Source: Schmidtea nova | Taxonomy: Eukaryota | Assembly: GCA_044892505.1 (NCBI GenBank) | Contig: CM097884.1 | Coordinates: 110,236,001 to 110,300,000, forward strand | Direction of reading: 5' to 3' | DNA length: 64,000 nucleotides | Shown: piece by piece, positions 4,001 to 64,000 of the stretch | Layout of the letters: each line of letters starts with the position of its first letter | Numbering within the stretch: the first letter of the stretch is position 1 | Program-made: the position numbers and the translations under genes | The notes under the pieces: model-generated | Seen by the model: only the letters and a program-made list of their open reading frames with translations | Databases searched by the model: none | Told to the model about the DNA's origin: nothing

Positions 4001-4549
4001 AATGTTGAAGAAGCAATCCTAGAATATGATACTGTCAAATACGTGTATGCATCAATACGCCCATTACTATCTTGTGAACTACAACTTAAAGAGGTGCTGC
4101 CTTTCTTGGTTGAAAAACAGATGGCGCCGGGACTTCCCAATTTGGCAATTCTGTATAAAATATACTTGACTCTTCCTGTTACATCTGCTACTGCTGAAAG
4201 AAGTTTCAGTAGACTGAAAATTATCAAAAATTATTTGCGATCAACAATGACAAACGAACGTCTGTCTGGATTAGCATTAATTTCAATAGAACGCGAACTG
4301 GCTGAGAACATTGACTTTGAATCGACTATAAATCGTTTTGCTTCAATGAAATCACGCAGGAAGCAATTTAATTAATAAATAAACTGGTATGTTTGTTACA
4401 TCAATAAATTTACTGAATCTAATGCTTTATAATGATATTAGTATTCACTCAATACTCGGGAAAATGAGTAGTACAATCTTCATAATTTGTGGCGCCCCCT
4501 GAAAATTTTCGTCGTCCAACCCACGTACCAAAATCTAAATCCTCCACTG
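1098..4549 (+). mobile_element. hAT DNA transposon (ZMYM1-like/DUF4371 group)
   Basis: TIRs CAGTGGCGGATTCA (1098) and reverse complement CAGTGGAGGATTTA (ending 4549) enclose a hAT transposase. The 8-bp flanks (ttgaaaag/ccacaaac) do not match, so no TSD. Confidence 0.9.
1745..4375 (+). pseudogene. hAT transposase, ~876 codons, one in-frame TAA at 3746-3748
   Basis: ORFs 1745-3748 and 3776-4375 are in the same frame, joined by 9 sense codons (EKRVAKKKR). Motifs: WLVYS..C (TTF-type Zn finger), LPFRGH, IVDSTID, QAYDGA, CCSH, TRW, C-terminal SATAERSFS dimerisation domain. Confidence 0.92.
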
Positions 4550-42890: not shown

Positions 42891-43859
42891 TTTTGGCTTA
42901 TTTGTCAACCACATACATAAACTATCTCTTATTACGTAAAAATTATTAAAACAAATTATTAATGTATTTTTAAAGATATTTTAATTTTATAATAATATCA
43001 TAATATGAAATTAAATATAAATTGAAGTATTTAAAATTTTTTTCAAGAAGTATTTATTTAAATAATAGTTTTAAACATAACTTACATATTTCGATTAATT
43101 TGGCAACTTGGAATAGTTGATTTTGAGGTAAGTTTAAGGTATCCAAATTTCTTTCAGATCAAACCAAGTCCCCACCCTTTCGAAAAAGTTAACAATATTA
43201 GACCTCTTCATTTCTTTCTCTCCTCAAGATTTCGACTCGCCTGGGCTGCCGTCAAGCTTCTATTTAATTTTTAATTTAGATTACATAAGAAAATAAAATT
43301 AAAAAATTTAATATTAATTATTTATTAATTGGAACAAGAACAGTCAAAAATATTTGCATTTGCTCACATCCGCACATCGACACCATGCACAAACTGTATG
43401 TACAATTGATGAAAAAGCTTGTAAAGTATTCATAATATAAACATTTGAAAACTGGAACTTTTGGTCATACCGAAAGGTTCGTTCGGGACACTTGGACACG
43501 AGATTTAAAACCGGTGACAATCTCTATTAATCGGACGTCTGGCAATCTTAGGTAAGTTGTGAGCTTTATCTAAAGTAATTTTTTTCTAGATTACGGAAAC
43601 CAGGATTAGCTATAGCAGGAAGCGGTTGGTGCAAAGCCTCTTGTAATTAAATTAATTAAATTAACCTTAAAATATATGTTATTTCTTATTTAAAAATTAG
43701 CCAGCATTTAAATCAACATCAGAATTAAAGAAGAATAGCCTTCAAGTTTTGTTTATATATTAGGAGAAAAGAGCGTAGTTTTCAAATTTAATAAATTTTG
43801 TAGTTGACTTTATTTATTTAATGGATAACGAAAATGATTTTGATATCGTTGCTGCTAAT

Positions 43860-44887
43860 ATGGCGACCACGCCAACAAACCTATTGATTAGCAGGATGTT
43901 ACCAGAAAGATTCCACAGAGACGATGACTTGGAAGAATTCATCAAAGAATGTCAAAAGTATTTTAATATTACGAAGATATCTGTCAAAATGCAGATGATT
44001 CTGGTTACCACACTGTTGGATAAACCATTATATGACGAATATGAAAAAGCAGAAGGAAAAACATTCAAGGAAAAGCTCAGAACAGCATTTTCGAGACCAA
44101 AATCATTATTTGACGACTTCAAAGGAAGCTCTTAATTATGAACAAGGATCCGATTCAGCAGACCGATTCATCGAAAAAGTGGAGAAATTAACCAAAAGGT
44201 TATTAAGACATGAGTGGAACGAAGAAGAAATTAAAAAATGCCTGCTTATGAATGGAACTCGAGAGAAAAAAATTAAAAAAGAAATAGAAATGCAAGAACT
44301 AAAGACGTCAGAAGAAATTAAAAGCACAATTAGAAAAGTTGAGAAAGTGAATAAAGCTATAAGCCATGTTAACACCATTCGACCTATAGCATATCCGAAA
44401 CCTGTCAAAAGCTTTAGAGATGCCGTTCAAAGACCTGCACAGACAAATGTGATTCCGATGTCAAAACCATTGGAAGTGACTAAAAACGTCGTATGCTGGA
44501 CATGCCAGAAACCAGGCCATATAAGCCGGGAATGTACTATAAAGAGGAAGATTCAGTGTTTTGGATGTGGATTATATGGACACGTACGCCGAGAATGTCC
44601 AAACATCCAGTGTAGGAGATGTCATCTACGAGGTCACAAAGAAACTGAATGCTATACAAACCTAGAAAGATTTAAGCCGAAAATGAGCCAACATGGAAGG
44701 AACAATGCAGCATATCAAAATAAAAGGGACCGATTTCAACAAAACAATCAGTATAATAGAAATTGGACATCAAGATGCAAACTATCAAGTAAATTATTCA
44801 AGTGAAGCCGAAGAGAAATACGAAGAAATGCAATACCCAAACGAGGAAGCTCCATCACAGGAGGCGATGATCGGAGCCATTTATTAG
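43860..44887 (+). pseudogene. Gypsy gag with three CCHC zinc knuckles (frameshifted)
   Basis: CWTCQKPGHISREC, CFGCGLYGHVRREC, CRRCHLRGHKETEC. Frameshifts near 44125 and ~44760. Confidence 0.88.
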
Positions 44888-47800
44888 GTAATTTTGATTT
44901 TGATGAAAATGCTGGTTATAATAATTTAAATAATTTGAATAATGTAAATAATTTGAATAATGTAAATAATTTAAATAATGTAAATAATTTTAATTTTGTT
45001 AGTAAAGATTTATGTAATAATATTGATAATAAAACTAATTTTAATGTTTATAAAAGTGGCAGTACAGATCAGAAAAATGAAAACAGAAAAATAACGTGTA
45101 GCGATGAAGGAACTGGAGAAAAAGTATATAGATTCCTAAAAAAGACATTTGATATGAATGAAGATAAGATTATGTGGATTAATGAACTTTCCGATAGTAT
45201 AAAGAATAAAGTGGAACAAAATATATTTATAAAAGACGAATGGAGAAGACCTCGTATGAATTATCATAAAATGCAAGGTAGACCAAGTATAACACTTGAA
45301 ATTCAGGGCCGCGGAATTGAGTGTCTGTTAGATACAGGAGCACGAATTAATGTTATGTCTAAAGCGGTACTGGATAAACTTGACAAAGTCGAGATAATAA
45401 AAACAGATAAAATGCTAAGGTGTGCAAATGACAGTAAATTGGAGACTATCGGTAAAATTCAAATTGATGTAAAGATAAGGAAACTAACAAAAATAGTGAC
45501 CTTTACTGTAGTCCAAAACATTGTCCCATATGTTATTGGAGGTGTAGAATTACAGAAACAATTCGGTATTGAATTAAGATGGATTCAAGAAGATGAAATA
45601 ATATTTAACGAACGTATATGTGAAATTGTTGCTAAATTTTGGAGGAATATTACAAATGAAGAAAGATTCCAATATGCAATAGAGAAGTTGAAAGTAAAAG
45701 AAGATAAATTTCTTTTAGAAATTATCAAGAGAAATAAATGTGTTTTCATGGCTGACAAGTGGGATATTGGATGCACTGATTTAATTGAGCATAAAATTGA
45801 AACAACTGGTGGACCAATAATGATAAAGCCAAGAAGGCAGCCTATAAACTTGGAAGAGAAAATAAACATGGCCAATAAAAATCTGGAGGATAATAATATT
45901 ATAAGGAAGTGTAATTCACCTTGGAACACCACGTTAGTGTGCGTTTGGAAAAAAGAAAAGAAGGATATCAGACTTTGTTTGGACTTTAGACAACTTAACA
46001 AAATTACTGAAAAGCAAGTGTTCCCGATGCCAAATGTCGACGAGATCTTAGATGCTTTGCATGGAACTAGATATTTTAGTACCATTGACCTTGGAAACGC
46101 ATACTATCAGGTAAAATTGGATAGATAATCACAGGAGAAAACAGCTTTTTCAACGATAGAGGGACAATTCTGTTTTAATCGAATGCCATTTGGCATCGCA
46201 GCAGCACCAGGCACTTTTCAAGAGCTCATGATGAAGATATTAAAGGATATATGGAAAGACGGAGTAATTGTTTATTTGGACAATATATTAATTTTTACGA
46301 ATACAATGGAAGAACACTATAAACTGCTGGAAAGAGTATTGCAGAAAATTGCGGATGCTAAACTAAGAATTAACCCAGAAAAATGTCAAATACTGAAAAG
46401 TGAAGTGAAATTCTTAGGCCATATTATAAATAAAGGTGGCATTCAAACTGATCAAAGCAAAATTGAAGCTATTCAATCATTCCAAAGGCCAAAATGTGTG
46501 AAAAATTTAAGAAGTTTCTTGGGCATCTGCAACTATTATCGAAGGTTTATTAAAGACTACGCAAAAAAGTCAAGATCTTTAGAGAGTATGTGGTAAAACT
46601 AGCGACAAAATAATATGGAATGAAAATTGTGAGCAGGCTTTCGAGAATATGAAGTTGGCATTGATAACCGCACCGATCTTGGTATTTTCGGATTTTAAGA
46701 AAGAATTCATATTGGATACGGACGCAAGTTTTGATACGATTGGCGCAGTGTTATCACAGAAGGATGACATGGGATATGAGCAAGTTATCGCATATGGATC
46801 ACATGCGATGAATGACCACGAAAGGGGTTATTGTATTACAAGAAAAGAACTTCTGGCTATATACTATTTTTGTCGACATTTCAACCACTATTTATATGGA
46901 AAAAGATTCACACTACGTACAGATCATAAGGCGATAACGTTTATGCTAACAACAAAGAAGCCAATTACAGTTGAATTCCAGACGTGGATAAACTATTTAA
47001 GCAGCCTTGATATAAAAATGGAATTTAGAAAAGGTACATTACATGCTAACGCAGACATGTTATCGAGAAAAACGTGTGGCACATGTGTACAATGCCTTAT
47101 GGATCACGATAATCCTAAAATGGGAAGAATGAAAACCAGATTGTTAAGTATAATGACTGAAGGGAAAGGAGAGGAATGGCAAAGAAATAGTGAAGAAATA
47201 GAGGACATTAAAAATAAAATAAGAACTCAACCAAGTAAAAGGTTTATAATAGAAGATAACAATATTTACACCAAAGAAAAAAGAATATGGATACCAGAAA
47301 GTAAAAGAAGAGAAATGATTAAGAAAACACATTTATTATTATGTCATGCCGGAGTTGATAAAGTTATCAAATACATACAAAACAATTTTGATATAAGAGA
47401 TTTAATAAATGAGGTAAAAACAGCAATATCAAACTGCGAATCGTGCCAAAAAGTTACAGTTGTAACTACAAAGATGAAAGAGAAATCAAATGTACTTGAA
47501 GCATCAGAACCTTTCGAGAAAATATATATGGATATCTGTGGCTCAATGAAAGAAACATTTAACAGGAAAAGATACATTTGCGCAATAATCGACCATTACA
47601 GTAAATACATTTCGCTAACAGCAATAAATAAACAAGATGAAGAGACAATTGGGAAGATATTGTTAAACAATTGGATTCTAAAATTTGGGGCACCCAAGGA
47701 ACTACATGTAGATTGCGGGAAAACATTCGAAGCGAATAGCATAAAGAATATAAGCAAGAAAGCAGGGATCGAAATAGTGTATTCGAGTTCATATCATCAT

Positions 47801-48268
47801 AATACGAATGGTATAATCGAAAGACAATTCCGGACAATAAGAGATTTTATTAATGCATCGCTGAAAGACGGAAATACAAAAGACTGGGCAGATCTTATTC
47901 CAGATATAGAATATACACTCAACGCGACAATCCAAAAAACAACGGGAGTAAGTCCAGCTGAAATTGTTTTTGGTAGGAGAATTGATAGATCGAAATGGTA
48001 TAGTGATAGTAGAATCAACAGAAAAGAAATAGCATTGAAAATTGAAAGTAAAAGACTAAATGACGAAACAACAACTGCAAGGAAGTTTGAAGTGGGAGAC
48101 AAAGTGTTAATCAAACGAGAAATACGAAACAAGGATCAAGATAGGTATGAAGGACCATACACGGTAACAAAACGAATACACGATCGTAGTTATATGCTGA
48201 GAGATAAATGTGGAAAGTATTTAATCAGGAATATTGAAAAGATTAAAGAATTTAAAGAAGGTGGATGA
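44806..48268 (+). pseudogene. Gypsy pol (PR-RT-RH-IN)
   Basis: LLDTGA; RT with YLDN (catalytic D to N); in-frame TAA at 46126-46128; frameshift at ~46590; RNase H DTDAS; HHCC, DDE and GPY integrase motifs. Confidence 0.92.
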
Positions 48269-50936: not shown

Positions 50937-53900
50937 TATTCATGTAATTATTGGTGGGTTGTTGACCGTCAATATGACCTTGACGTTTCCATGGCTCTCA
51001 TCAACAACTCAACACACAAAACATTGAAATTACCATCTTGTTACCCGTCACTATGTAACGTTGGTACTGTAACAAGTGGGTGGGTATTCGCAATCAGTGA
51101 GCGTCGTCAATACGAAACTATGATTGACCGAATATCTCCTGGGTCCAAGGGCTACCGATGGAAGGTTTCTTGCCCATTTTTGTCCCCCTTAATTTATATA
51201 CTCTATCACTGTGGATGTTTATTACGAAATTTTCATTTGAATATTTTCGCCAAACTGTGATTTATTTATTAATCAATTAATTTATTTGAGCGCTTTTACT
51301 CTATTCGCAAACATGCATTCGAAAATATTATCGCAACTCAATTAGGTGATCAATTATTCCTTCAGAAAATGCATATATTTGGGAATATACAAATTGCTCT
51401 TATTTAGACCCAAATTTTTATCATTATCGCAATTTCCTTAAATTGTTATGTTTTTTATATTTAAAATTTATGTAAACTTTATTTATATTCAAATCCTATT
51501 GTCTATCTTGCTTTAAATTTATAATAGAAAATTCATTAAAATTTCAACATTTTGATTTTAAAATTTTGCTGAGGCCTTAGTAACGAAATTGATCTAGTAA
51601 AACTTTGGCTTATAATTTATAATCATCAGCTTTCGGTCTTTTTAACTTATTTAAATTCTTAATTCAAATTTAAAATTTCCTGCGAAATTAGAGTGCACTT
51701 TTTTTTAAAAATTTTTACTAAAAATTTATTTAATCAAAAAATATTTAATCCTTGTTTAAAATAATTAACTAAAATCAACCTCAAACAAGCGCGGCTTGAT
51801 TGGTTGTTTTTATTATGGGTGTTATTTGTGATGGTAAAATTTATTGATTTTACCATACCCTTTTTATGATAATCAACTTATTTTAGAGTAATATCATGAT
51901 TCTTTAAACAAGCCAAAAATACTGGAAGGAATTTTATTTATATTAGCATTCGATTCGGCGTCAAACACGCATTTCAGAATGGCTCTACCGGTGTGAAATA
52001 TTCTTCCTTTATTTTTCCAATTTTTCAAGTATGGAATCTCGTCGGGGATTTAACTCAACTCGATACCATTATGATGGCGACGCCTCTGTGGAATTTTCCG
52101 TCCAGGCTCACATACTCTTGAAAATCTCATCTACTGGACATCTTAGGAATTTAATTTCTCCTGTCAGTTCAAATCTCCAATTCATCTCGATGATTTCATC
52201 TCTTATTATAAATCGACTCATTCCACGAATTGACAAATGATTCAACCTGCCATTTACTGTAATTTCCTATTTCTGATCCCTAATAAAATTTTAGTTTTTG
52301 TAAAAATATATATTTGGTTTTTTTTTTTTTGAATTTATGTTAATTAATTTAATAAATAATTTGAGAATTTTATATAAAATCTAATATTTGATATCCGATA
52401 TAATTGGATATAATAATATATAATAATATCTAAATAATATATAATTATATATAATATTTATAAAATATAAATTGAATTAGGAGAAGTTGTAGTTAATTAA
52501 GATCTGGTAGGCCGTATATCGGGTAACGAAAAACAGAAGGGGTTAGAATTAAAAAAAAAATATCCCTCTTGGTATACTATAAACTATGAATTTACAGGGG
52601 CATCCGAAATGTAAATGTAGATGTTTGTATGTGGTTGTAGTTGGATGAGATGAAGTATAATGACTGTATGTTCTATTGTTACTATTGAGTTTGTGTGTGA
52701 TTTGTGGATGGGTGATTGAAAAACAATTAAGTGCTCGTGAGTGTGGTCAGATGTACGATTCCAACTAGCATGTCTGTGTGGAATTTTTGGTATGGTTTGC
52801 TTGTGTGCATGTGATTGTTGAATGCTATTGAATGATACTGTGTATGTGTGTGTATTGTGTTTTATATGTATGTTGCTTGTGTATTAGTATGGATGATGCT
52901 ATTGAGTGAAAAGGGTGTGATTTTTTTGCAATGAGTGATGTATCATTATTTTTAAGATATCGTGGGGGTGGTTATATTATAAATTATATAAAATAATTTT
53001 AAAATAATAATAATAATTTTAAATTAAAATAATAATAATAATTTTTAAATCAAAATAATAATAATAATTTTTTCAATACTTTTTATGGATTTTTAATTTA
53101 CAATTTTACGAAAATTAACTAATGATGAAATTTATAAGTTTTGTAATATATATTTTTGAAGTTAAATTTTTATCTTTTTAGAATATATATATTAATCATA
53201 AAATTTTTCCTATAAAATTTCAAATTCAGATTTTTATAAAATGATAAGAATTTTTAGTATAATAATAAAATTTCGATCTATAATTTTTATGGGGTTTAAT
53301 ATATCTTTTGATTTGCAATTCTCTGGAATTTTATGAAAGAATAAAATCTTTTATATAATAACAATATTAGGAACCAATTTTGGTTTACAATTTTTTCCAT
53401 ATAAAATCTTTTCAACATAATAAAAAGCAAATTTTTATTTCTGATCCAAATGAAATGATAATAAATTTTTATCCATAAATTTCGAAATCCAAGTAAGCAT
53501 TTAATCTAAAAGGTTTTTATATGCTAAATAAAAATAAAATAAAATAAGTTATAAATTTTTCAACGAATATTTTTAATATCAAGTAAAGTAAATTTCGGTT
53601 TTGTTGAGCATGAATTTCCCAATCAAAATGCACGCGAATTTTTCGGGACACTTCACTTAGGAATTTCAGGCTCTCGAAAACGAGGTTCACAGGAAAAATT
53701 TATTTAGACAATAATGAGTGTAATTCAGATCAAATAAATACTTGTTTCACAATTCGTTTCATTTCGTGAGCATTATTCTAGGCTTGAGCATTATTTCGAA
53801 CAATTTTCTTTTCACCATTAGCTTTCATTTTTCTTGCGTTTTCTCATAAGATGATCGTTGTTGAGAGTGTGAAGGTGAAGGTGAGTACGAGTCGATTTTT

Positions 53901-55644
53901 TAATCAATAATATTTCCTATTTTAGATTTCAAGACATGAGTTAGAAATTGTTATGTTATATTACGAAATTGCTTATGTAGATAATAAAAATATGATACTC
54001 TATTATAATAAAAATCATTAGTATAACAAATCCTTGCTCTTGGCCATACCACGATTCCCCAGTTGGGATGACGAGATTATGGATGTATGAGCCTCACCTT
54101 AAAGTGGAAATATGGGCTGGCCGATTACCAATCAGACAACGATCCACCCAGGCTACTAACAGATCCGCACAACTAAGGCTGGACGGATCGTCAGAAGATA
54201 TGGGAGAAAAAAAAATTTCTTTACTTATTTTCGATAATTTTATTCGAATAACTGCTGGTAAACTAATCATTAGGTAGGGAATTTGTGTCTTATTATGATA
54301 ATAATAACAAGAAAAATTTTAATAAGAATTAATATTTTAATAATTTCATAATAGCAATATATAAATCCATAAAATAATACATAACAAATTATCAAAGAAC
54401 GAGGAGTGGAATGATCGTCAGGCATGATGGACGACCATTCCAATCCTCAATAAAAATAAATATAACATAAAAAAAAAACAATTACTGTTTACGTTTCCTC
54501 ACGAATTTTGGGAATTAATAAATTCTTCTAAATCGGATTGAAATTCTCTGGGATTCTAAAAATCTTCTCGGAAAATAATGAATTCTTCTTAGCTAGAAGC
54601 TTTTCAACAGAGTTTTTTCACAATTTCTCTTAAATTAAGATGTTGTAAATTAAATTCTAAATTCTTAATAGAAAAATTTTTTTCACAAATTCTGACTTCT
54701 GCCATTTTGATGGCGGTATATATACCATCAAATTTTCTCTATCTCCGGTAGTGCAATAAAACAAATTGTTCTAGAATTTTCTCTTAATTTTTTCTAAATT
54801 AATTCTAATGATTTTCCGAAAATTAATTCCATATTTTTGTATAATAATTTTTTATAAACTATAAATAATTTATTTTAATTCAAAATTTTTATGTTTGAAT
54901 CGAAATTTGTTCGATTTGATTTAATTTATGATATTCGATCCATATTAATTCTTTCTATTGTTATATGTGAAATTTTGTGATAAATTCACAATTTTCCTCT
55001 AGAATTGTGTTAATTTTTCTGCACTTGAAGGTTTATGACAAAATTCTGTTCTTTATGGGCATTCTTCATGGGTTTTTTGCCTATTCTAGCTTCCAAACAT
55101 TCTGCTTTTAATTTTTCTCCAGATTTCAGTAAAAAGACTTACAAACTCGCAGTTAGCGCGTACTCTACCGGTTGATGTGTTTTGATTCCACTTCACCTTT
55201 TGGTGTTTTCCACTTAATTGTTGGATTTTTAATGGAAGCTAAGGTTAAAAATGGAATCTTGCGCGTTCTCTACCTATGGGGTTATCGCTTTATTAAAACA
55301 AATTGCGTTTTGGCCCAACATAAAATACTCGGGGGCCCGCAAAAATTGCATCCCGCAATTTCTCAGAGGGGTTAAGAACCAAGACTAATCAAAGGTCAAA
55401 AGGTTGTACATTATACACGAGCTACTTGGTCGTGATCATGCCGTTCGCGACAATAAAAATAAAAAGTGATAAAAATTAATAAAAAGTTAATACGTATACA
55501 TTAATATGAGTCTACATCGACTCGCAAGCAAAATTAAATGTAATATATGTGCCTACAGCCTCTAATCAAAGTTCAATATGAGTCTACAACGACTCGGATA
55601 AAAGTTTTATCAAGTTTATTAAGTTTGTTAAATTATCAAATTTA

Positions 55645-56439
55645 TTATTGAATTGGTTGGATCTTCGACTGGAATAGTTTGAATGACTCGGTATTGATCA
55701 ACTGTTTCTTGTCATCTTCTCTTCGGGATTGTTCGGAGGTCATGTTGTTCATCATTCTTGTGGTGGTCAAGCCTAACCGTATTATACCACAAATTCCGAT
55801 TATTAGGAAAAAGTTAAGGATGATCAGGCAGATATCGAGAATTCGTTCGGATGATAGGAGGGATGCTCTGCACTTGTCTCTGTCTTGATTGTTATCCGGT
55901 TTCGATATCTCGTTTATGTGATCGTGGATTTTATTCTTAAATGCCAGGTTCTCGAAATAAGCCTTTCTTAGTTGTTGTGCCGTTTGGTTTCCTACTTCGG
56001 AAATCTGCTGGGACAGGTTATGATGAATTTGCTGGATTTGTTTCAGACATTTCGGACTTGATGAATTTATCGTTGGCTGATCGATTAACTTGACTATATT
56101 CATTTTAAGTTCTTTGGTGAGACTTTTTATTGCGTCACGGGTTTCTCGATCATTATCAAAAATATCCTCGAATGTATCTCTGATCGCTAAATCGGCTAAT
56201 ATTATCGTTGCTATTCTCTTTAGACCTGAAATTTCTTCATTTTGATTGAAAAGGGTATTTTGAATTTCGACTTTGGCTTGCTCAATCTTTTCGGATAGTT
56301 GTTTGTTGTTAGAGATTTCAAATGGTTCTTTATTACATTGTTGATTTGGGTTTAATTGGCTTGATTTCTGGGTTTCTTCGAGATGACAATAAATTGTTGT
56401 GATCATGGCGATAAGGAAAACCTCTCGGTACGATTTCAT
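55645..56439 (-). CDS. Type-I membrane protein (264 aa): signal peptide, coiled-coil ectodomain, C-terminal TM
   Basis: N-terminal VFLIAMITTIYC; Q/E/K-rich heptads; TM ILDICLIILNFFLIIGICGII; intact ORF. Confidence 0.8.
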   Translation of the reverse strand: MKSYREVFLIAMITTIYCHLEETQKSSQLNPNQQCNKEPFEISNNKQLSEKIEQAKVEIQNTLFNQNEEISGLKRIATIILADLAIRDTFEDIFDNDRETRDAIKSLTKELKMNIVKLIDQPTINSSSPKCLKQIQQIHHNLSQQISEVGNQTAQQLRKAYFENLAFKNKIHDHINEISKPDNNQDRDKCRASLLSSERILDICLIILNFFLIIGICGIIRLGLTTTRMMNNMTSEQSRREDDKKQLINTESFKLFQSKIQPIQ

Positions 56440-56642
56440 TGTTGATTTTTTGTGTTTCTAATAGAAAGAAATTGAATAATGACGATAAATAATTTTTGTT
56501 ATTTACAAGGGCGTTACGATTTTTACACAGGGTTATGATTTAATGATGATGAAATATTGTTCAAGCTGAGAATACAAATAGATAGATAGGTTAAATGAAT
56601 GGAAGAAAATACATGAGTTGTCAAAAGGGGGATCGAATCGTA

Positions 56643-57467
56643 TTATTGTTTATAGAAGTAATTCATCTGCACCGAGGTTGTAGATGTCTCAGGATTAGGC
56701 TGTTCTGGAACTGGATCTTCAAATATTGATCTTAAAAAATTCTCTGACGGGTTGTTGTCTTCATGGGTGATTCGTTTGATTGTATTCAACTGGATTTTAG
56801 CTTTCTCTAATTTCATTTTCTCTAATCCGATTGATGCAGCAATGCTAAGGATCATTATGACCGCGAAAAGACTGATGCCTTGTAGAACGACTGTGATGGC
56901 TGCTTCTCGGTCTCTGACGTTTTCGTTTGTTGATCCTTGTTTAGGGGTAATCTCCTTTTGCTTTTCGGGTAATATCAATTGTTTTATAATTCTCTCGGTC
57001 TGATGAAGTTGACTTTTCAGTTTTTGATTTAACTCTTCTGTAAAACTTGATCTTTCCTCATTAACTTCATCTTTATTATTTAAAGATTTTTCTATTAGCT
57101 TGCTCAATTTCTTTAGTTCGGTTGTTAACTGTTTGAAAAATGATTGGTTTTCGAGCTGTTTCTTTAGTTGAAGATTGTTTCTTTTGGTTAAGGAGATTTG
57201 TAGTTGGATTAATTGTTGAGTTTCATTTCTTAATTGTTTAAGGATGGTGATTGAATCTTCACTGGATTTAGGACATTGTTGACATTGTAATTGTATCTGT
57301 TGACACTCCTCATTTCTGGTGCTACAAATTTCTTGATAGCTTACGCAAATGCTATCGGATCTTCTAAATGGGTGGCTTGCTTGACATTGACTCAATGCTT
57401 CTTCGCTTCGGCAGTTTGTAATTATAAATATCATGATGGTGGTTGTGATCCTCCTTAGATTGCTCAT
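56643..57467 (-). CDS. Type-I membrane protein (274 aa): signal peptide, Cys-rich N-terminus, coiled coil, TM
   Basis: ITTTIMIFIITNC; 7 Cys in the first ~70 aa; heptads; TM AAITVVLQGISLFAVIMILSIAASIGL. Confidence 0.8.
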   Translation of the reverse strand: MSNLRRITTTIMIFIITNCRSEEALSQCQASHPFRRSDSICVSYQEICSTRNEECQQIQLQCQQCPKSSEDSITILKQLRNETQQLIQLQISLTKRNNLQLKKQLENQSFFKQLTTELKKLSKLIEKSLNNKDEVNEERSSFTEELNQKLKSQLHQTERIIKQLILPEKQKEITPKQGSTNENVRDREAAITVVLQGISLFAVIMILSIAASIGLEKMKLEKAKIQLNTIKRITHEDNNPSENFLRSIFEDPVPEQPNPETSTTSVQMNYFYKQ

Positions 57468-57562
57468 TTTCTATAGATTTATAGATTCAAATTTGTTTAA
57501 TGATTTGTCAAATTTTCTCTTTTATATTTTTACAGGGATATTTACATGAGTTTAGATATATT

Positions 57563-58138
57563 TTATTCTTTCGTCTCTTCATTTAGCTTTAACGGACTTT
57601 CTGGCTTCCAGTTACCCATTTTTGCAATCTCGTCTGCTTCTTTTCGCCTTTGTTCTTTGAGGACGTAATTTTCTGCCGTTTTAATTTCTACAACTTTCTT
57701 TGCTTTGAATGTATCAAATTTTGCTTCTATGATTTCACTTTTCAACTTTATTATCTGTTTTTCTCTTTTGATAATCTTTTTCTGTTTGCTCTTCAAGGAT
57801 CGTTGTAATGACTCGATCTTAATTCTCCTTTTATTATCAGTGTTCTGTTCACTGCTTATTTCCCTTTTGAGTCTGTCAATCTCTTGCTTCTGTCTGTCGC
57901 AATATTTTTGAGTAAGACCATTTTGTTGGCGAAATAGATAATTTTCTCGCTTGATTATTTCCATCGTCTCGCACTCTTGTTCCATTTGTGCGATATATTT
58001 TCTATCTTTGCTCATTACTTCCTTCAATTGGTCTATTTGGTCTTGAAAATATTGTTCTGTTGCTCTTTTCCATTTTTTGAATCTTTCTTTTGATATCGTT
58101 TGTTGTTCTGGTTCTGATCTTTGCTTCAATAATCTCAT
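57563..58138 (-). CDS. Coiled-coil protein (191 aa), function unknown
   Basis: Intact ORF, K/E/Q-rich heptads. Confidence 0.75.
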   Translation of the reverse strand: MRLLKQRSEPEQQTISKERFKKWKRATEQYFQDQIDQLKEVMSKDRKYIAQMEQECETMEIIKRENYLFRQQNGLTQKYCDRQKQEIDRLKREISSEQNTDNKRRIKIESLQRSLKSKQKKIIKREKQIIKLKSEIIEAKFDTFKAKKVVEIKTAENYVLKEQRRKEADEIAKMGNWKPESPLKLNEETKE

Positions 58139-58419
58139 TTTCTATAATTTGAATTTTCATAACTCTTTTCTACAGTTTTATTAATTTTGTTTTTGTTTTT
58201 ATCATTTTTATCATTTTTATCATTTTTATCATTTTTAACATTTTCTAATTTTTATTTGTTTTTCATTTTTTCTAATTTTTATTGAATTTTTATTTTTTCT
58301 GCTTTTTATTTAGTTTTTTGGATATATTTTACAACTTTTTCTTTTTACATTTCTTTACAACGTTTTCTTTTTACACTACATTTCAATTTCTTTTTACACT
58401 TTACATTCACTTTTATTAT

Positions 58420-58611
58420 TTATACAAACGTCTCTTCAATTTCTCCGAACCCTTCATCTTCGATTTGAGGATTTTCTTGCTCCAAATGTACAGGTTGTAT
58501 TGGTGTTGGATATAGTGGCCATAGAATGATTGGAGGTTGATTTTGTAGGCTCTGAACTCTTTCTCGCAAGGTTCTTGAGATTTCTATCTCTTCATCTAGC
58601 AAATATGTCAT
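58420..58611 (-). CDS. Small ORF (63 aa) overlapping the upstream stop via ATGA
   Basis: Same codon style as its neighbours. Could be a frameshifted tail of 58608-59966. Confidence 0.4.
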   Translation of the reverse strand: MTYLLDEEIEISRTLRERVQSLQNQPPIILWPLYPTPIQPVHLEQENPQIEDEGFGEIEETFV

Positions 58612-59966
58612 ATAATCGAGTTTTCACTCAGCTGTTCCTTTTCTATCTCGAGCTCTCTCGTATTTTCCATATTTTTTAACCTTTCAATCTCTCTTTCATA
58701 GTTTTGGCGGTTTTCTTCCAAACTTTGGATAGCCATTTCAATCTCATACTGCGATTGCTGGATCGCTTTCTCACATTCGGCCTTTGTTTCTTCTATCTGC
58801 CGTCGCTGGTGTTGAATGACAATGTCTTTATGAGTATTTGTTCCTCGATATCCGTTGACTTCACGGTTTGCAATAGTCAATTCGATTGTCAATTCTTCAA
58901 TACTTCTATCATCCATATTTTTCTGTTGATCATATTGCCTATTTTCAAATTCCAGATATTTGATACGAGCTTCTTGATTCCTGGTAAATTTCATTCTCCT
59001 TTGATTCCATTCAGTTTTTAATTGAACTTGTCGTTTTAATTCTTTGTTTTCTATCTCTTGCTTTTCTGCATTTTCCCACAATTCTGCTTCATTTATTGAC
59101 ATCAGCTTCTTTGGAAATTCTCGTAGTTCGTCTCGAGTTCTTTTCCAGGTCTTTTTCCATGTTCTGGCTTGTTCTTTCAGCCACTTTATTTGATGCCTTA
59201 TGCTTCGTTCCCTGAACTGTCCGCTCGTTTTCAACTGGAATATTTCTTTTCTGAGTTTCTCCGTTTCCTCATGACGTATGTCTGCATACCAATGACATTC
59301 CTCTTTCAGAGCCTCGATTTGAACGTCTCTTCGTCTTAGTAATTCTTCCTGTAGCATTTTCCTGTGTCGAGCCATTTCCAATAAATCTTGGTGTTCTTGT
59401 TTCCATTTCCTAGCCTCTGCTTTAACTTTTCTAATGATATTTTCTTGTTCGCTTTCAGGTTCAATGTTTCTTGTTCTGACTTTAAGCTTCTTTTGAGGTT
59501 GTCCTCTCAAAACAAATGCTTCATCTCGACACTTTTCCCATTTCTTTTTCATGGCTTCATATCTGTTTCTTTCACTTTCGAGTTGTTGCTGATAGAATCT
59601 TATGGAGTTGTCATACCTTGTTTCGGTATCTCTTTTATAGGTTTCGAGCTCCTCTTTTCTTAGTCTCGCTTGATTTTTCAATGGTACCGACTTTCGTTGT
59701 TCGTGCTCGAGTTTTCTCTCCATTTCTCTGTACTCTCGTTTATAATTGTCTAATTCAGCTTCGATATGCGCCTTGTCGTTTATTATCTTTCGCAGTTCCT
59801 CGTTTTCTTCTTTTATTTTGTTGATCTCTTGGGTTCGTTTTTCAATTATTCTGACGTTCTCTTGGATGGCTTCCATTCTTTGTTCATAGCTTTTCATTTG
59901 ATTTAGTTGCTCTTGTCTTTTTGCCATCTCCTGATTTAGGATGTCTATCAATTGTTGTATATTCAT
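58608..59966 (-). CDS. Long coiled-coil protein (452 aa), Trp-studded
   Basis: Intact 1.36-kb ORF, E/K/R/Q-rich heptads. Confidence 0.8.
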   Translation of the reverse strand: MNIQQLIDILNQEMAKRQEQLNQMKSYEQRMEAIQENVRIIEKRTQEINKIKEENEELRKIINDKAHIEAELDNYKREYREMERKLEHEQRKSVPLKNQARLRKEELETYKRDTETRYDNSIRFYQQQLESERNRYEAMKKKWEKCRDEAFVLRGQPQKKLKVRTRNIEPESEQENIIRKVKAEARKWKQEHQDLLEMARHRKMLQEELLRRRDVQIEALKEECHWYADIRHEETEKLRKEIFQLKTSGQFRERSIRHQIKWLKEQARTWKKTWKRTRDELREFPKKLMSINEAELWENAEKQEIENKELKRQVQLKTEWNQRRMKFTRNQEARIKYLEFENRQYDQQKNMDDRSIEELTIELTIANREVNGYRGTNTHKDIVIQHQRRQIEETKAECEKAIQQSQYEIEMAIQSLEENRQNYEREIERLKNMENTRELEIEKEQLSENSII

Positions 59967-60100
59967 TCTGAAATAATAATAACATGGGTAATTTCCTTTT
60001 GTTTATACATTTTTTGTTGCTCATGCTTATTAAATAATACTTGTATACATCAAGTGAAATTAAAATCTTTACAATTTATTTACAAAGTTGTTTGATTGGA

Positions 60101-61270
60101 TTATTGATCGGCATAACGGAATCCCTTGATCCGTTTGTCGACCGGTTTCCTGCACATTGAGCACAATCTCAATTTATTGCTACAATTTTCACATGCTAAC
60201 AGATGTCCACACGGTAAATGAATAACTTCTACTTTCTTTATCCAACAGATTGAACAGGGGTATTTATTTAATATAACTTTCTTGATACATGATTCTGGGT
60301 TGACAACTTGGGATTTTCTGGTGAACTGTATTATAGCTTTAAAGAATTCTAGGGTTGATCCAAATGTTTCTCCATTTCTTCTCAATCTCTCTCTGATGAC
60401 TTCTTTCATAAATATTTCGCTTTTGCCGGTGCGTTCCATTGCCTTTTGAGTTCGTGGTTCCTCTAATATCTTGTCTACTAATAATTCATTAACAGGCACC
60501 TCTGGGTTTTTATAATTGATCGGCTCTTCGTCTTCATATAATTCTTCTCTATATTTACAATATTCGTTGGGTTTCAGGTATTCTCCTTCCTCTTTTGGTA
60601 ATTGATATTGTATTCCACACTCTGAACATTCAGCGGTTGATTCATTTATTGCATAAAGACCTTCTATTGCTAATCTGATACCCATCTTTTTATCTGCAAA
60701 AGTGTTAGTTCTCCCATTAATCGTATATTTTGGATCAATTTCTATGAAACGTATCTTTGCTGGACCTGTTGAAGTTATCGTTACTATTTTGGGTTTTTCT
60801 TCTTCGTCGTTGTTCATTGTTGCTGGTTTTCTTGGTGTTTCGCATGCCTTTAACACAAACTGGCATGTGGGTGAAAGTTTTCTATGTTCTGTTAGTGGAT
60901 CATCGTTAATTCTCCAAGGTTCTATTTCAATTCTGCAAAATACACAGGTTACTTTATCGGGTTTCTCAATTGTCCCTGCAAAATACAAACCATCTTTGGC
61001 GAATTTTCTGTATTGCTTTTCATAGAAATTGTCTTGTTGTAAAAAGGTTATATATCTTCGGTTCTCATTTTTCAACGTTTCATCGATAATTTTGAATTTG
61101 CCATAATTCCTTTCCTTGGGAACATTCGATATTGTTCGTGTAAATTGGCAATAAATCAATTCTGAGGTAATTGGTTTTGACATCTTTTCTTTACCTCTTT
61201 TCATTAATTCGCATAAACTTTTGAATGATCTGTCATCTTCTCGTATTTTCACGATCTTCCTTTCAGTCAT
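60101..61270 (-). CDS. Inhibitor of apoptosis (IAP/BIRC family): BIR, degenerate BIR, UBA-like region, RING (389 aa)
   Basis: Exact BIR Zn signature C-x2-C-x16-H-x6-C (CVFC...EH...PTC). C-terminal IAP-type RING CSIC..PCGH..CENC..CSMC. Intronless. Confidence 0.93.
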   Translation of the reverse strand: MTERKIVKIREDDRSFKSLCELMKRGKEKMSKPITSELIYCQFTRTISNVPKERNYGKFKIIDETLKNENRRYITFLQQDNFYEKQYRKFAKDGLYFAGTIEKPDKVTCVFCRIEIEPWRINDDPLTEHRKLSPTCQFVLKACETPRKPATMNNDEEEKPKIVTITSTGPAKIRFIEIDPKYTINGRTNTFADKKMGIRLAIEGLYAINESTAECSECGIQYQLPKEEGEYLKPNEYCKYREELYEDEEPINYKNPEVPVNELLVDKILEEPRTQKAMERTGKSEIFMKEVIRERLRRNGETFGSTLEFFKAIIQFTRKSQVVNPESCIKKVILNKYPCSICWIKKVEVIHLPCGHLLACENCSNKLRLCSMCRKPVDKRIKGFRYADQ

Positions 61271-61490
61271 TGTATCTACAATATTTTCTCCGTTATATTT
61301 TCACAATTTTTGTTTTCTATATTTACAAAATTTTGATTTTTCTCATTTTTATATTTGATTTTTTGGTTTTTCTCATTTTTATATTTCTTTTTAATTTTTA
61401 TGTTTTTTGTGATTTTTTAATTTTATTTTGTACATTATGATACAGATACTTCATTATAATACAGACATATTTACACTTTTTCCATCTTCA

Positions 61491-62948
61491 CTACGGCTTC
61501 CTCACTTCGATAATCAGATACAGGATATTATTTACCAAATATAATGATTGTTCTGTGGTTAAATAATGTAATGCAATAAAACGTGGATTTCCTACAGCTA
61601 CGTTGTAGTTTTCGATCGGCTTCCTATAAGCTGCTTCTACCTTCTTCAAGTTTGGTCTGAATACTTCCCGAACGTTGTTTTCCTTTGTTCCGATCATCAT
61701 AGTTATATCGCAATCGTAGGGCCATTCTAACCAATCGTCATAATCTCCTTTACATATTTGAAAATATACAGATAAATGAGTTCCGGCTCCTAGTCCGTCT
61801 CCCGTTAGATATACTTTGAATCTGAGCTTGTAACCATGTTTCCAACTGTGACAAGGTGGACTTGTCCATACACGTTGACCTCCTTCTCTTGCTAGTCTCA
61901 ATTTCTCTGTAAATTCTGTGATTTTCCAATAGTAGGGTGTGACGGGTAGTTCTTCCATTGTTGGCAATATGCTTTCCAATCTTTGTTGGATTGTTGATAT
62001 TTCTGCTATTTTCTGGTCTAATAGTATCATTTTTTGGATCATTTGTTCTCTTATTCTTTCAAAATTTCCTCTCGTATCCAACATCTCTTGTATCATGATT
62101 TTGTGTGATTTTATTTCTGTGTTGGCTTCTCCAATTACCAGTGCGATTGCTCCAATAGCTTCCACAACGGTTCTCAAATGATTTACACTATTTTCATCTA
62201 CATGCTTTTGTATTTCCTCTTTTGGTAATCTCACTTTGCAATTGAATAATTTTAGTGGACATGCAGTAGGCTTCTTTTCGCATATTTCCCAATGTTCTTT
62301 TAGCTTCACGTTTTCTGTCATTCCACATTGATTACAATTTCCTTCGTACTCGTCACATATTTGCCCTTCTTCTATATTCCAATGCTCATCTTTTAACACT
62401 ATCCAAGCGTCTGTTTCGTTGCAAAACTCACAGATTTCCTGTCGTTGTTCACACATTTCCTCATGACTGTCTTTGACTTTCTTCAACATTTCTTCTTCAC
62501 ACCACTTGCATTTGGCTTTCGTATCATCACAATTATAAAGGTGTTTGGCGATCCATTTTATTGGCCCACTCTATACACATGGTTTATTTGGACAGGTTGT
62601 TGCTGCGTTCATTATTTTCCGATTCATTGCGATATCTGGTCTGGTTTGGTCAAATTGGTATATTATTGCTTCACCACATTCAGGACATAGCTTCTGTTTT
62701 GTTCGTATTATTTTCATCACGCAATTAGTGCATATTCGACATCCACATTCAGTTTGTCTGGGTTCTATCAATAAATTTCTACATACTTTGCATTTAAACC
62801 TTTCTTGAAATTCTGTTGGTTCTATCTGTTGTCTCTGTAGTATCTGATATAATTCGATCAATTCCTCTTGTTTCTGCTGATTCTCGGTCTGCATTCTAAA
62901 ATAATTTACAATTTTTTCGTTTTGCTCTTTATACCAAGTTTTATTCAT
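61491..62948 (-). pseudogene. TRAF: TRAF-family protein (RING, Zn fingers, coiled coil, MATH), one in-frame TAG at 62571-62573
   Basis: The two track ORFs are in frame, linked by 27 sense codons (CPNKPCV*SGPIKW...). MATH motif GYKLRFKVYLTGDG.GAGTHLSVYF..KGDYDDWLEWP is TRAF2/3/5-like. Symbol is family-level only. Confidence 0.93.
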
Positions 62949-62988
62949 ATTCACATTTTTACATTTTATTTACACTGGTTTTAAATTT

Positions 62989-63624
62989 TTATAATGGTTC
63001 ATCCCTTCCCGTCGAGTCAGGCTCTCGAACCGGTTCTGGAAAATTGTCTAACCAGTTATACCATGCTCTAACTTCTTCTCGCGTCTCATTCAATCTTCTA
63101 ATTTCGTTTGTTTGCCACTCCGTATGTCTTGTTAACCATTCAATTCTCTGGTCCTTTTGGATTATCATTTGTTGTTGTTCTTCCATTTTAGCAAGATATA
63201 ATAAATTTCTGTTTACACTTTCTGTTAACAAAGCTTGTTCGTTTTTCCATTGTGCATAGGCTTGATTCAACATCCTGCTTAATAATTCACATTGCGTTTT
63301 CCATGATAACTCTTGCGTCATTGTCTGCTGATAAACCATAGGAGCTGATATTGATTGAGTCTGGCTATTTGTTGGTTGTTGATTTAATACGAATGTCGTT
63401 TGAATTGGATTCATGGTTTCATCAAATAGTGGGATTTCGACTTGGTATATCAGGTTTCTATCATCAATTGTTGGATTTTGCGTTTCATTTTCGATTACTG
63501 GGGTTTGCAGTGACCCTTCTCTTTCTCGTATATTGGTATCTTCTGGAAATTGAGTTTGATTTGATGGTTCATTGATCGTTGGAACTGATGCTTGATAACT
63601 TTGATTCTCGTTGTTCGGATTCAT
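62989..63624 (-). CDS. N/Q/T-rich protein with C-terminal coiled coil (211 aa from first ATG)
   Basis: Intact ORF. The track start at 63633 is TTG; the first ATG is at 63624. Confidence 0.7.
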   Translation of the reverse strand: MNPNNENQSYQASVPTINEPSNQTQFPEDTNIREREGSLQTPVIENETQNPTIDDRNLIYQVEIPLFDETMNPIQTTFVLNQQPTNSQTQSISAPMVYQQTMTQELSWKTQCELLSRMLNQAYAQWKNEQALLTESVNRNLLYLAKMEEQQQMIIQKDQRIEWLTRHTEWQTNEIRRLNETREEVRAWYNWLDNFPEPVREPDSTGRDEPL

Positions 63625-63775
63625 TTCTGTCAATAATTACACAATATTATCATTTGTTTTTCCCAGTTTTGAGGTATTCATTTTTTTGGATTTTTAAATT
63701 TTTATTATACAAATATATTCTACTTTTATAATACAATATAATTTTATACACTATATTCACTGTTCCTTCCACTGG

Positions 63776-64000
63776 TTACTCTGACAACTTGCGTTTCGAC
63801 GACATTCTGATGTTCTCATCTGGCTCGACGGTTAATATGACTTTTACGTTTTCTTGGGTGACTTTTGAACCATTATGTGTTACTATCTGACATACGAGTG
63901 TTCTAAACATTTCTTGTGATGCTTTCTTTTTGTAAACACAGATTTTATATTTTGTTTCTCGTTTTAATCTATTTATTCGGATTTCTCCTTCTTCTGCTTG
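63776..64000 (-). CDS. 3' end of a further ORF entering from beyond the window
   Basis: 75 codons open from 64000 to TAA at 63776-63778 (QAEEGEIRINRLKRETKYKICVY...KRKLSE*). Not in the ORF track. Confidence 0.65.
   Translation of the reverse strand, partial: QAEEGEIRINRLKRETKYKICVYKKKASQEMFRTLVCQIVTHNGSKVTQENVKVILTVEPDENIRMSSKRKLSE

Follow-up and report, generated by a model that had tools for sequence, protein, structure and literature searches.

Burros are giant Gypsy-type retrotransposons of planarians, described from Schmidtea mediterranea (Burro1/GYPSM1 and Burro2-4) and, as a Burro-like element, from Dugesia tigrina. They combine multi-kb long terminal repeats (LTRs) with a cargo of MATH/TRAF, BIR, ankyrin, Smc, SUMO-like, coiled-coil, BCL2 and Env sequences, for which meddling in apoptosis and ubiquitination has been suggested (PMC6431247, section 7). 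Canonical Burros exceed about 30 kb in total length and encode a polyprotein of about 5,000 aa with the order Gag-MATH-Env-protease-reverse transcriptase (RT)-RNase H-integrase-ankyrin. Here we describe a related element from Schmidtea nova, located at the right end of a 64,000-nucleotide stretch of a 1.25-Gb genome (assembly GCA_044892505.1, contig CM097884.1, positions 110,236,001 to 110,300,000 of the forward strand; hereafter the window, with window positions given as plain numbers and positions on the contig prefixed G000:C3). The original prediction for this stretch had taken a gene cassette for the cargo of a giant multicopy mobile element with target-site duplications (TSDs), and this has been borne out: the cassette belongs to a Burro-type LTR element with 4-bp TSDs and colinear copies. 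The element is almost certainly a non-autonomous Burro derivative. Our overall reading, which we hold with a probability of roughly 0.6, is that it is a satellite of the Burro retrotransposons, mobilised by an autonomous helper and carrying cargo that damps death or immune signalling.

Helper-dependent, replication-defective retroviruses carry captured host signalling genes in place of replication genes, and viral IAPs exist. Such retroviruses arise as transient recombinants in somatic cells and hold one or two genes, whereas the satellite is inherited as a family of about 1,900 copies whose modular cassette comprises several genes. With the LARD, TRIM, TR-GAG, BARE-2 and Quinta/Cereba elements it shares the retention of LTRs, primer site and TSDs, the need for an autonomous partner and the exchange of LTRs by template switching; as far as the accessible part of the source goes, the interiors of those elements are non-coding or hold Gag(-protease) or decayed remnants (bioRxiv 10.64898/2026.03.01.708851), whereas the satellite has dropped Gag and kept a protease together with about 10 kb of selected accessory genes. 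Unlike LARD and TRIM elements, it has nine open reading frames (ORFs) in its interior, and it lacks the Gag that TR-GAG elements retain. In non-autonomous grass pararetroviruses, as here, recombination keeps the cis-sequences of the partners alike while their coding regions diverge; they belong to another virus class, and the accessible part of that report mentions no captured cell-death regulators (PMC5491270).

Compared with the described Burros, the satellite has no Gag, Env, RT, RNase H or integrase, distributes its genes over separate ORFs, among them a full-length TRAF and a BIR-UBA-RING IAP, and outnumbers its helper about 7:1. A TRAF in a separate accessory ORF is also known from the Dugesia tigrina element (PMC6431247). 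With 25.6 kb and LTRs of 4.37 kb, the satellite falls short of the canonical Burro length, the helper copy measuring 29.2 kb; the Burro descent of the satellite is indicated by a polyprotein remnant and by cis-sequences homologous to an autonomous Burro. The earlier remark that Burros carry extra ORFs was right as to the cargo theme, which is published; a non-autonomous form is not described there (PMC6431247). We found no non-autonomous Burro in the literature searched, although the Grohme 2018 supplements and the Repbase entry may describe one among Burro2-4. Nor did that literature mention the probable reliance on a helper, the high copy number, the selective shedding of replication domains while the protease stays, the operon-like signals or a gene held in common with a Polinton-like family.

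The element lies on the minus strand at G000:C3:110286952-110312564, and the flagged cassette is its 3' half. Its LTRs, found on reading to the right of the window, are a 4,376-bp direct repeat with 99.6% identity between the 3' LTR (50952..55320, minus strand, 4,369 bp) and the 5' LTR (G000:C3:110308205-110312564). LTRs and element end in TG...CA. One 4-bp TSD is at 50948..50951, its partner lying past the 5' LTR outside the window. A primer-binding site begins 10 nt past the 5' LTR; its primer is presumably tRNA-Pro. In 5' to 3' order follow a leader, which contains a RING ORF of 160 aa as well as a tandem repeat, and then ORF-A, ORF211, TRAF, IAP, CC515, CC191, TM274, TM264 and the 3' LTR. 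The cassette ORFs are separated by 40-280 nt, and the coding strand has 44% A against 22% T, whereas the window left of the element is balanced (35/34%), so that the compact, A-skewed minus-strand cassette stands as first described. Its left edge had been placed at 55645; the cassette begins there, yet the 3' LTR inside the window had been left out. Between the two, the pre-LTR stretch (55321..55634, minus strand) is 91-98% identical to the autonomous helper family; no purine run, and hence no canonical polypurine tract, was seen before the 3' LTR, and a motif common to the helper and a second autonomous family, family B, occupies the spot.

The 3' end of ORF-A lies at 63776..64000 (minus strand) and continues to G000:C3:110302885; the frame, about 1,045 aa in most copies, is broken into two in this one. 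Pfam recognizes a SUMO-like domain (weak, E=0.011), a retropepsin protease and ankyrins, and nothing else. ORF-A aligns with residues 441 to about 540, about 1300 to 1482, 2627-2762 and 3781-4336 of the helper polyprotein at 34-66% identity, while residues 1-440 (Gag and CCHC) have no counterpart. From these alignments, ORF-A is a deletion derivative of a Burro polyprotein that keeps its C-terminal domain, with Gag, MATH, Env and RT-RNase H-integrase taken out by four in-frame losses. Among all genome matches to the protease region that were scored (140 of 140; genome searches scored only the best 140-150 candidates), identity was 95-100% and frames did not exceed 1,070 codons. So as to avoid a best-hit bias, we also sampled 17 copies by position: among the first 100 exact matches listed for a junction 30-mer, one in six was taken at regular intervals, and all 17 lie within the first 97 Mb of contig 1. 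The protease DTG motif is kept in all 17, and helper Gag, Env or RT-RNase H-integrase appeared in none of them and in none of nine further tiles (9.5-kb tiles were fetched). Motifs resembling protease-cleavage sites flank the retained protease, a pattern drawn by eye. The family thus has the paired LTRs, primer site, TSDs and high copy number of a non-autonomous LTR retrotransposon and no RT or integrase. Gag-pol or viral core genes, suggested as something to look for to the right of the window, were not found within the element, which is non-autonomous and has its autonomous partner elsewhere in the genome.

Each of the six further copies examined, which were chosen as best hits, is colinear over its full length. 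TSDs of 4 bp flank five of seven copies as well as the helper copy, and the end motifs were not found in the other two. Paired LTRs are 99.3-100% identical in most blocks and 98.8% identical in two, so the insertions are young. At a homologous 30-mer site, exact matches number 1,943 for the satellite type and 263 for the helper type, with none for reversed controls; a 30-mer in the IAP gene has 1,193 matches, 61% of the family count. At 21-25 kb per copy, 1,943 copies may fill 3-4% of the genome, an upper estimate. In two places (G000:C1:302118780-302188635 and G000:C3:74207402-74245970), copies run head to tail at a spacing of about 17-21 kb, which suggests tandem arrays with shared LTRs.

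The helper surfaced in a MATH search as a 4,706-codon frame. In the one copy read end to end (29.2 kb), Gag, CCHC, MATH, a fusion-type Env, protease, RT, RNase H, integrase and ankyrins are encoded, so that the helper, not the satellite, has the canonical Burro polyprotein. The 150 RT matches scored are all 100% identical, about 74 of them (counted by hand) in frames of 4,900-5,018 codons; the helper family is therefore young. Helper and satellite match over about 9 kb of cis-sequence: the LTR ends are 96-97% identical, the primer site is the same, the leader is 91-96% identical in nine of 13 blocks, and the pre-LTR stretch is shared as well. In trees of four LTR segments, built from six satellite and eight helper LTRs after one satellite and three helper-type loci whose ends were not found had been dropped, the LTRs of both types interleave every time. 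One satellite LTR is, in its distal half, 97-98% like a helper LTR and about 70% like other satellites, in an alignment that internal repeats make rough. Co-packaging followed by template switching would be the simplest way to read this exchange, and this autonomous Burro family, with its shared LTR pool, is the likely helper. The leader also holds a 21-bp tandem repeat between the RING ORF and ORF-A (L011:3674-4083), which varies in length among copies and occurs in the helper too.

Two other families were considered as helpers. Family B (L068-L071, L073-L076) is not favoured, its DNA matches being short. A third high-copy Gypsy family (L045-L047, L051-L053, L057-L059), about 13-14 kb long where both LTRs were found, encodes a Gag-Bcl2-Env-protease-RT-RNase H-integrase polyprotein of about 3,060 aa and a second ORF, the Bcl-2-like match being weak; it was rejected because it has no DNA match within the element and a different primer site. 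Pfam finds no BCL2-like motif in the satellite or in the helper copy.

All cassette genes in the window lie on the minus strand. The IAP gene (60101..61270, 389 aa) encodes one BIR with intact CCHC zinc ligands, an insert, a UBA-like stretch that alone stays below significance, and a C-terminal RING, and so belongs to the IAP family; it is collinear with cIAP1, its best solved relative (3t6p). The three BIRs and the CARD of cIAP1/2 are absent, with a single BIR present and no match to a CARD. TRAF (61491..62948) has the RING, zinc fingers, coiled coil and MATH domain of its family, and Pfam recovers RING, zf-TRAF and MATH across the two parts into which a stop at 62571-62573 splits it; TRAF measures 485 aa in all nine best-hit copies. 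CC515 (58419..59966) is coiled-coil-like and has a homologue in family B; a one-base gap near its 3' end leaves 452 aa in this copy (58608-59966), against 515 aa in eight of nine others. The claim that every ORF is open save for the TRAF nonsense codon thus fails for CC515 and for the split ORF-A. ORF211 (62989..63624, 211 aa) is homologous to the family B frame that occupies the corresponding position (38% over 108 aa), and CC191 (57563..58138, 191 aa) is coiled-coil-like. TM274 (56643..57467, 274 aa) has a hydrophobic N-terminus, a six-cysteine domain, a coiled stalk, a transmembrane (TM) helix at 193-211 and a tail; TM264 (55645..56439, 264 aa) has a hydrophobic N-terminus, a helical ectodomain and one TM helix at 203-221, weakly resembles the last ORF of family B and is modelled poorly (predicted local distance difference test, pLDDT, 44.6). 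BLASTP indicates no paralogy between the two. They had been called env-like, a label we drop: neither matches a fusion-protein family, in contrast to the helper Env (E=2e-70).

Purifying selection among copies acts on all cargo genes measured, with ratios of non-synonymous to synonymous polymorphism (pN/pS) of 0.09-0.51. The count covers eight of the nine ORFs, the 160-aa RING ORF lying outside it. In pairwise comparisons of ten best-hit copies, TM264 has 0.51, TM274 0.17, CC191 0.11, CC515 0.09, IAP 0.21, TRAF 0.13 and ORF211 0.15. In the 17 sampled copies, cassette genes range from 0.12 to 0.23, parts of ORF-A from 0.13 to 0.39, and the protease stands at 0.29; taken together, the ranges are 0.11-0.13 for CC191, 0.09-0.12 for CC515, 0.21-0.22 for IAP, 0.13-0.22 for TRAF and 0.15-0.23 for ORF211. 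Among the genes, constraint is strongest on CC515, and it is tighter on shared variants than on singletons (0.14 vs 0.25; Fisher p=0.005). The cassette is modular. ORF-A, CC515 and CC191 are present in all or nearly all sampled copies. In four of the 17 (L080:4639-6087, L086, L078:3341-4759, L089), a further membrane ORF, up to 482 aa long, is inserted after ORF-A; its cysteines form, by eye, an EGF-like pattern, a hydrophobic segment lies at its C-terminus, and it has no Pfam or PDB sequence match.

The spacers carry signals that may resolve the cassette into separate messages. In eight of nine ORFs a YAG resembling a splice acceptor precedes the ATG by no more than 6 nt, compared with a background of 18% among 369 ATGs of the coding strand (p=9e-6); without TRAF, whose start was picked after the site had been seen, the count is seven of eight (p=4e-5). 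Within the window, the acceptors so predicted are at 56458, 57471, 58142, 59968, 61276, 62896 and 63627. The motif TGTAAATA is found six times in seven spacers, against 0.16 in shuffles, mostly 14-17 nt past a stop. By eye, the ORFs of family B display the same pattern, and a scan for splice-donor motifs yielded three candidates. Flatworms have spliced-leader trans-splicing, and the pattern fits separate spliced messages, whether cis-spliced or trans-spliced to a spliced leader. We therefore consider it likely, as a prediction from the sequence, that the cargo ORFs are expressed as spliced monocistronic messages.

TRAFs and IAPs control death and immune signalling, and an anti-death or anti-immune role of the pair is the reading we lean to, if only slightly. 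The two had been predicted to form a partner complex. When a trimer of the TRAF coiled coil was modelled with the BIR, it scored 0.48 against 0.00 for the best control, with contacts at least 85% alike between runs and a partner pLDDT of at least 76. In calibration, 51 of 78 solved pairs and 2 of 108 mismatched ones attained the mark, but passes at 0.60 or below came from only 5 of the 78 solved pairs and from all 4 passing mismatches; moreover, since a like complex has already been solved, the pass may reflect memorisation by the model. The model thus lends weak support to a TRAF-IAP complex. The pair is dispensable in cis, as 7 of the 17 sampled copies lack both.

TM274 has a type I topology, with a hydrophobic N-terminus, six conserved cysteines and one TM helix, which fits the description of Grindelwald in the accessible part of PMC8024323. 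Against single-CRD (cysteine-rich domain) TNF receptors of the Grindelwald/BCMA/Fn14 type, it reaches an Atlas score of 0.84 at low recognition. For the cysteine domain, there is no PDB sequence match, Pfam offers just Opy2 at E=0.84, and a search of viral contigs returned nothing. For the TM274 model (pLDDT 64.5), the highest Z (3.6) falls on helical proteins that are unrelated, and Foldseek finds no match. A TNFR- or Grindelwald-like nature of TM274 is accordingly a lead and no more.

As for its origin, much of the cassette recurs in family B. Downstream of the polyprotein of that family come an ORF211-like frame, TRAF, a coiled-coil ORF and small membrane ORFs, which follow the order of the satellite and are 26-38% identical to its genes; no IAP or TM274 was found in the two copies examined. 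Its 3.3-kb LTR contains two ORFs of about 210-230 aa. A MATH tree (160 columns, 34 rows) unites the TRAFs of the satellite and of family B with the helper MATH and one unnamed protein in a single clade (SH 0.98, long branches); putative host TRAFs and the vertebrate TRAF2/3/5 clade fall outside it, and the satellite TRAF is not a TRAF2 orthologue. This grouping points to an old, Burro-wide capture of TRAF. The proposal that the element captured both partners of a death-control complex was overstated in this respect, as the TRAF was not newly taken from a host TRAF2. Several putative host TRAF paralogues likewise occupy single open frames of 448-486 codons, so that the absence of introns does not speak for capture. 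By phmmer over all representatives, TRAF has 4,784 relatives, the nearest named ones from Dendrocoelum and Dugesia; word-based protein searches with TRAF, TM274 and IAP returned nothing, which reflects their sensitivity, as phmmer did find TRAF relatives. A dense MATH/TRAF gene cluster, with many genes in tandem, near the end of contig 2 (G000:C2:405000000-455000000) is probably a host TRAF expansion. One protein, P0009, begins with a tail resembling an integrase C-terminus (by eye) and runs on into a TRAF of host type that is close to L095; it may represent another TRAF capture, independent of the first.

A homologue of TM274 (51% over 61 aa, E=2e-21) is the last gene of a high-copy family that encodes a protein-primed PolB as well as an A32-type ATPase and is thus Polinton-like; at least 150 near-identical matches to this gene were found in the genome, and the homologue has no Atlas match. 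One such Polinton/Maverick-like element, spanning L013:8497-10000 and L014:1-8220 (G000:C3:110328497-110338220), ends in a 193-aa TM274 homologue. That a membrane gene occurs both in an LTR element and in a Polinton-like family suggests exchange across element classes. To the left of the element, the window contains an unrelated, broken Gypsy-like gag-pol (43821-48268, plus strand), recognized from translations, and no tRNA genes were found in the window.

If the satellite reading is correct, its life cycle would run as follows. The full-length RNA would be packaged into particles made by the autonomous Burro family; the helper RT would copy it, starting at the primer site that both have in common, and the helper integrase would insert the product. 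The cargo ORFs would be read from separate messages, cis-spliced from a common leader or trans-spliced to a spliced leader, and the retained protease would probably process ORF-A itself. TRAF, IAP and the solo RING may work together as a ubiquitin-ligase module and damp death or innate-immune signalling where the elements are switched on, such that cells would survive long enough for new insertions. Several observations weigh against this reading. The sampled copies without TRAF and IAP have lost both together, through three different deletions, each of which reaches as far as the IAP stop codon and leaves the CC515 spacer intact; two of the three are common to several copies, so variants without the pair have kept spreading, and genome-wide IAP-site matches likewise trail those of the family. 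With its single BIR and no CARD in the IAP, and with a TRAF other than TRAF2, vertebrate TRAF2-cIAP logic may not carry over. According to the accessible part of PMC8532177, BURRO1 de-repression in another planarian occurs mainly in differentiated cells, so a role in stem cells is not favoured. AATAAA is not enriched in the spacers (10 observed vs 11.7 expected), and an enrichment of this signal is rejected. Family B shares the primer site, and the identity of ORF-A to the helper polyprotein, at 34-66%, speaks against a recent origin from this helper. Finally, the pN/pS count is a simple one that takes no account of transition bias; this lowers the values somewhat, although bias alone is unlikely to explain values so low.

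Other readings start from the same facts. The cargo might serve the life cycle of the element or counteract its silencing rather than cell death, with the three RING ligases and the SUMO-like domain hitting restriction or silencing factors and ORF-A, the coiled-coil and the membrane proteins steering RNA into helper particles. The genes kept in nearly every sampled copy are indeed ORF-A, CC515 and CC191, not TRAF or IAP, and the deletions stop short of CC515, where constraint is strongest; the BIR, however, keeps its zinc ligands and has IAPs as its best solved relatives, which, together with the Bcl-2-like domain of the third family, speaks for repeated use of death regulators, and we rate this alternative as possible but less than likely. 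It is also conceivable, though in our view unlikely, that helper and satellite form a two-part retroelement from which both gain, the helper replicating and the satellite providing host-modulating proteins that the helper lacks, with TRAF/IAP-less copies cheating on a shared good. This is consistent with the common LTR pool, with the spreading deletion variants and with a helper copy in which tblastn and Pfam find no BIR or full TRAF but a MATH domain only, while family B bears a homologous cassette on an autonomous element; mutualistic pairs have a precedent in Quinta/Cereba (bioRxiv 2026.03.01.708851) and grass pararetroviruses (PMC5491270), so far as the accessible parts of these reports go. 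Yet the 7:1 excess of the satellite fits parasitism equally well, and only one helper copy has been seen end to end. A fuller version, which we consider rather improbable, has the satellite operon, resolved by splicing, encode a complete receptor-proximal TNF module (TNFR-like TM274, TRAF, IAP and solo RING) that would rewire death or immune signalling to the benefit of both partners sharing the LTR pool, with TRAF/IAP-less cheater lineages and a receptor-like gene common to the Polinton-like family.

The mobiliser might instead be family B or an unseen, closer parent, in which case the shared LTRs would reflect gene conversion between inserted copies. The low identity of ORF-A to the helper, the synteny of the cassette with family B rather than with the helper, the primer site of family B and the restriction of genome searches to the best candidates all leave room for this; it is nonetheless quite improbable, as the LTR and leader of family B match in short motifs against about 9 kb of cis-sequence in the helper, and as near-identical LTR pairs in each copy fit exchange during reverse transcription better than later conversion. 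That host-level selection acts on a few domesticated master copies, the rest being passive by-products, appears very improbable: planarian TRAFs are reported in the accessible part of PMC6109357 to be greatly expanded and expressed, but the copies are young and dispersed, with differing TSDs and several LTR and cargo subtypes, and constraint reaches the protease remnant.

In larger planarian genomes, expanded transposon families remain to be identified, as the accessible part of PMC11410931 states. Non-autonomous LTR elements are usually seen as shrinking parasites, whereas the satellite keeps about 10 kb of selected genes without replication genes. It thereby makes testable what maintains accessory, possibly public-good genes on a multicopy element, and its natural TRAF/IAP-plus and TRAF/IAP-minus subfamilies provide a built-in comparison. 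Furthermore, the roughly 1,200 element-borne IAP genes, each beside a TRAF in the sampled copies, could inflate planarian family counts as well as the read-outs of RNA interference and RNA sequencing experiments.

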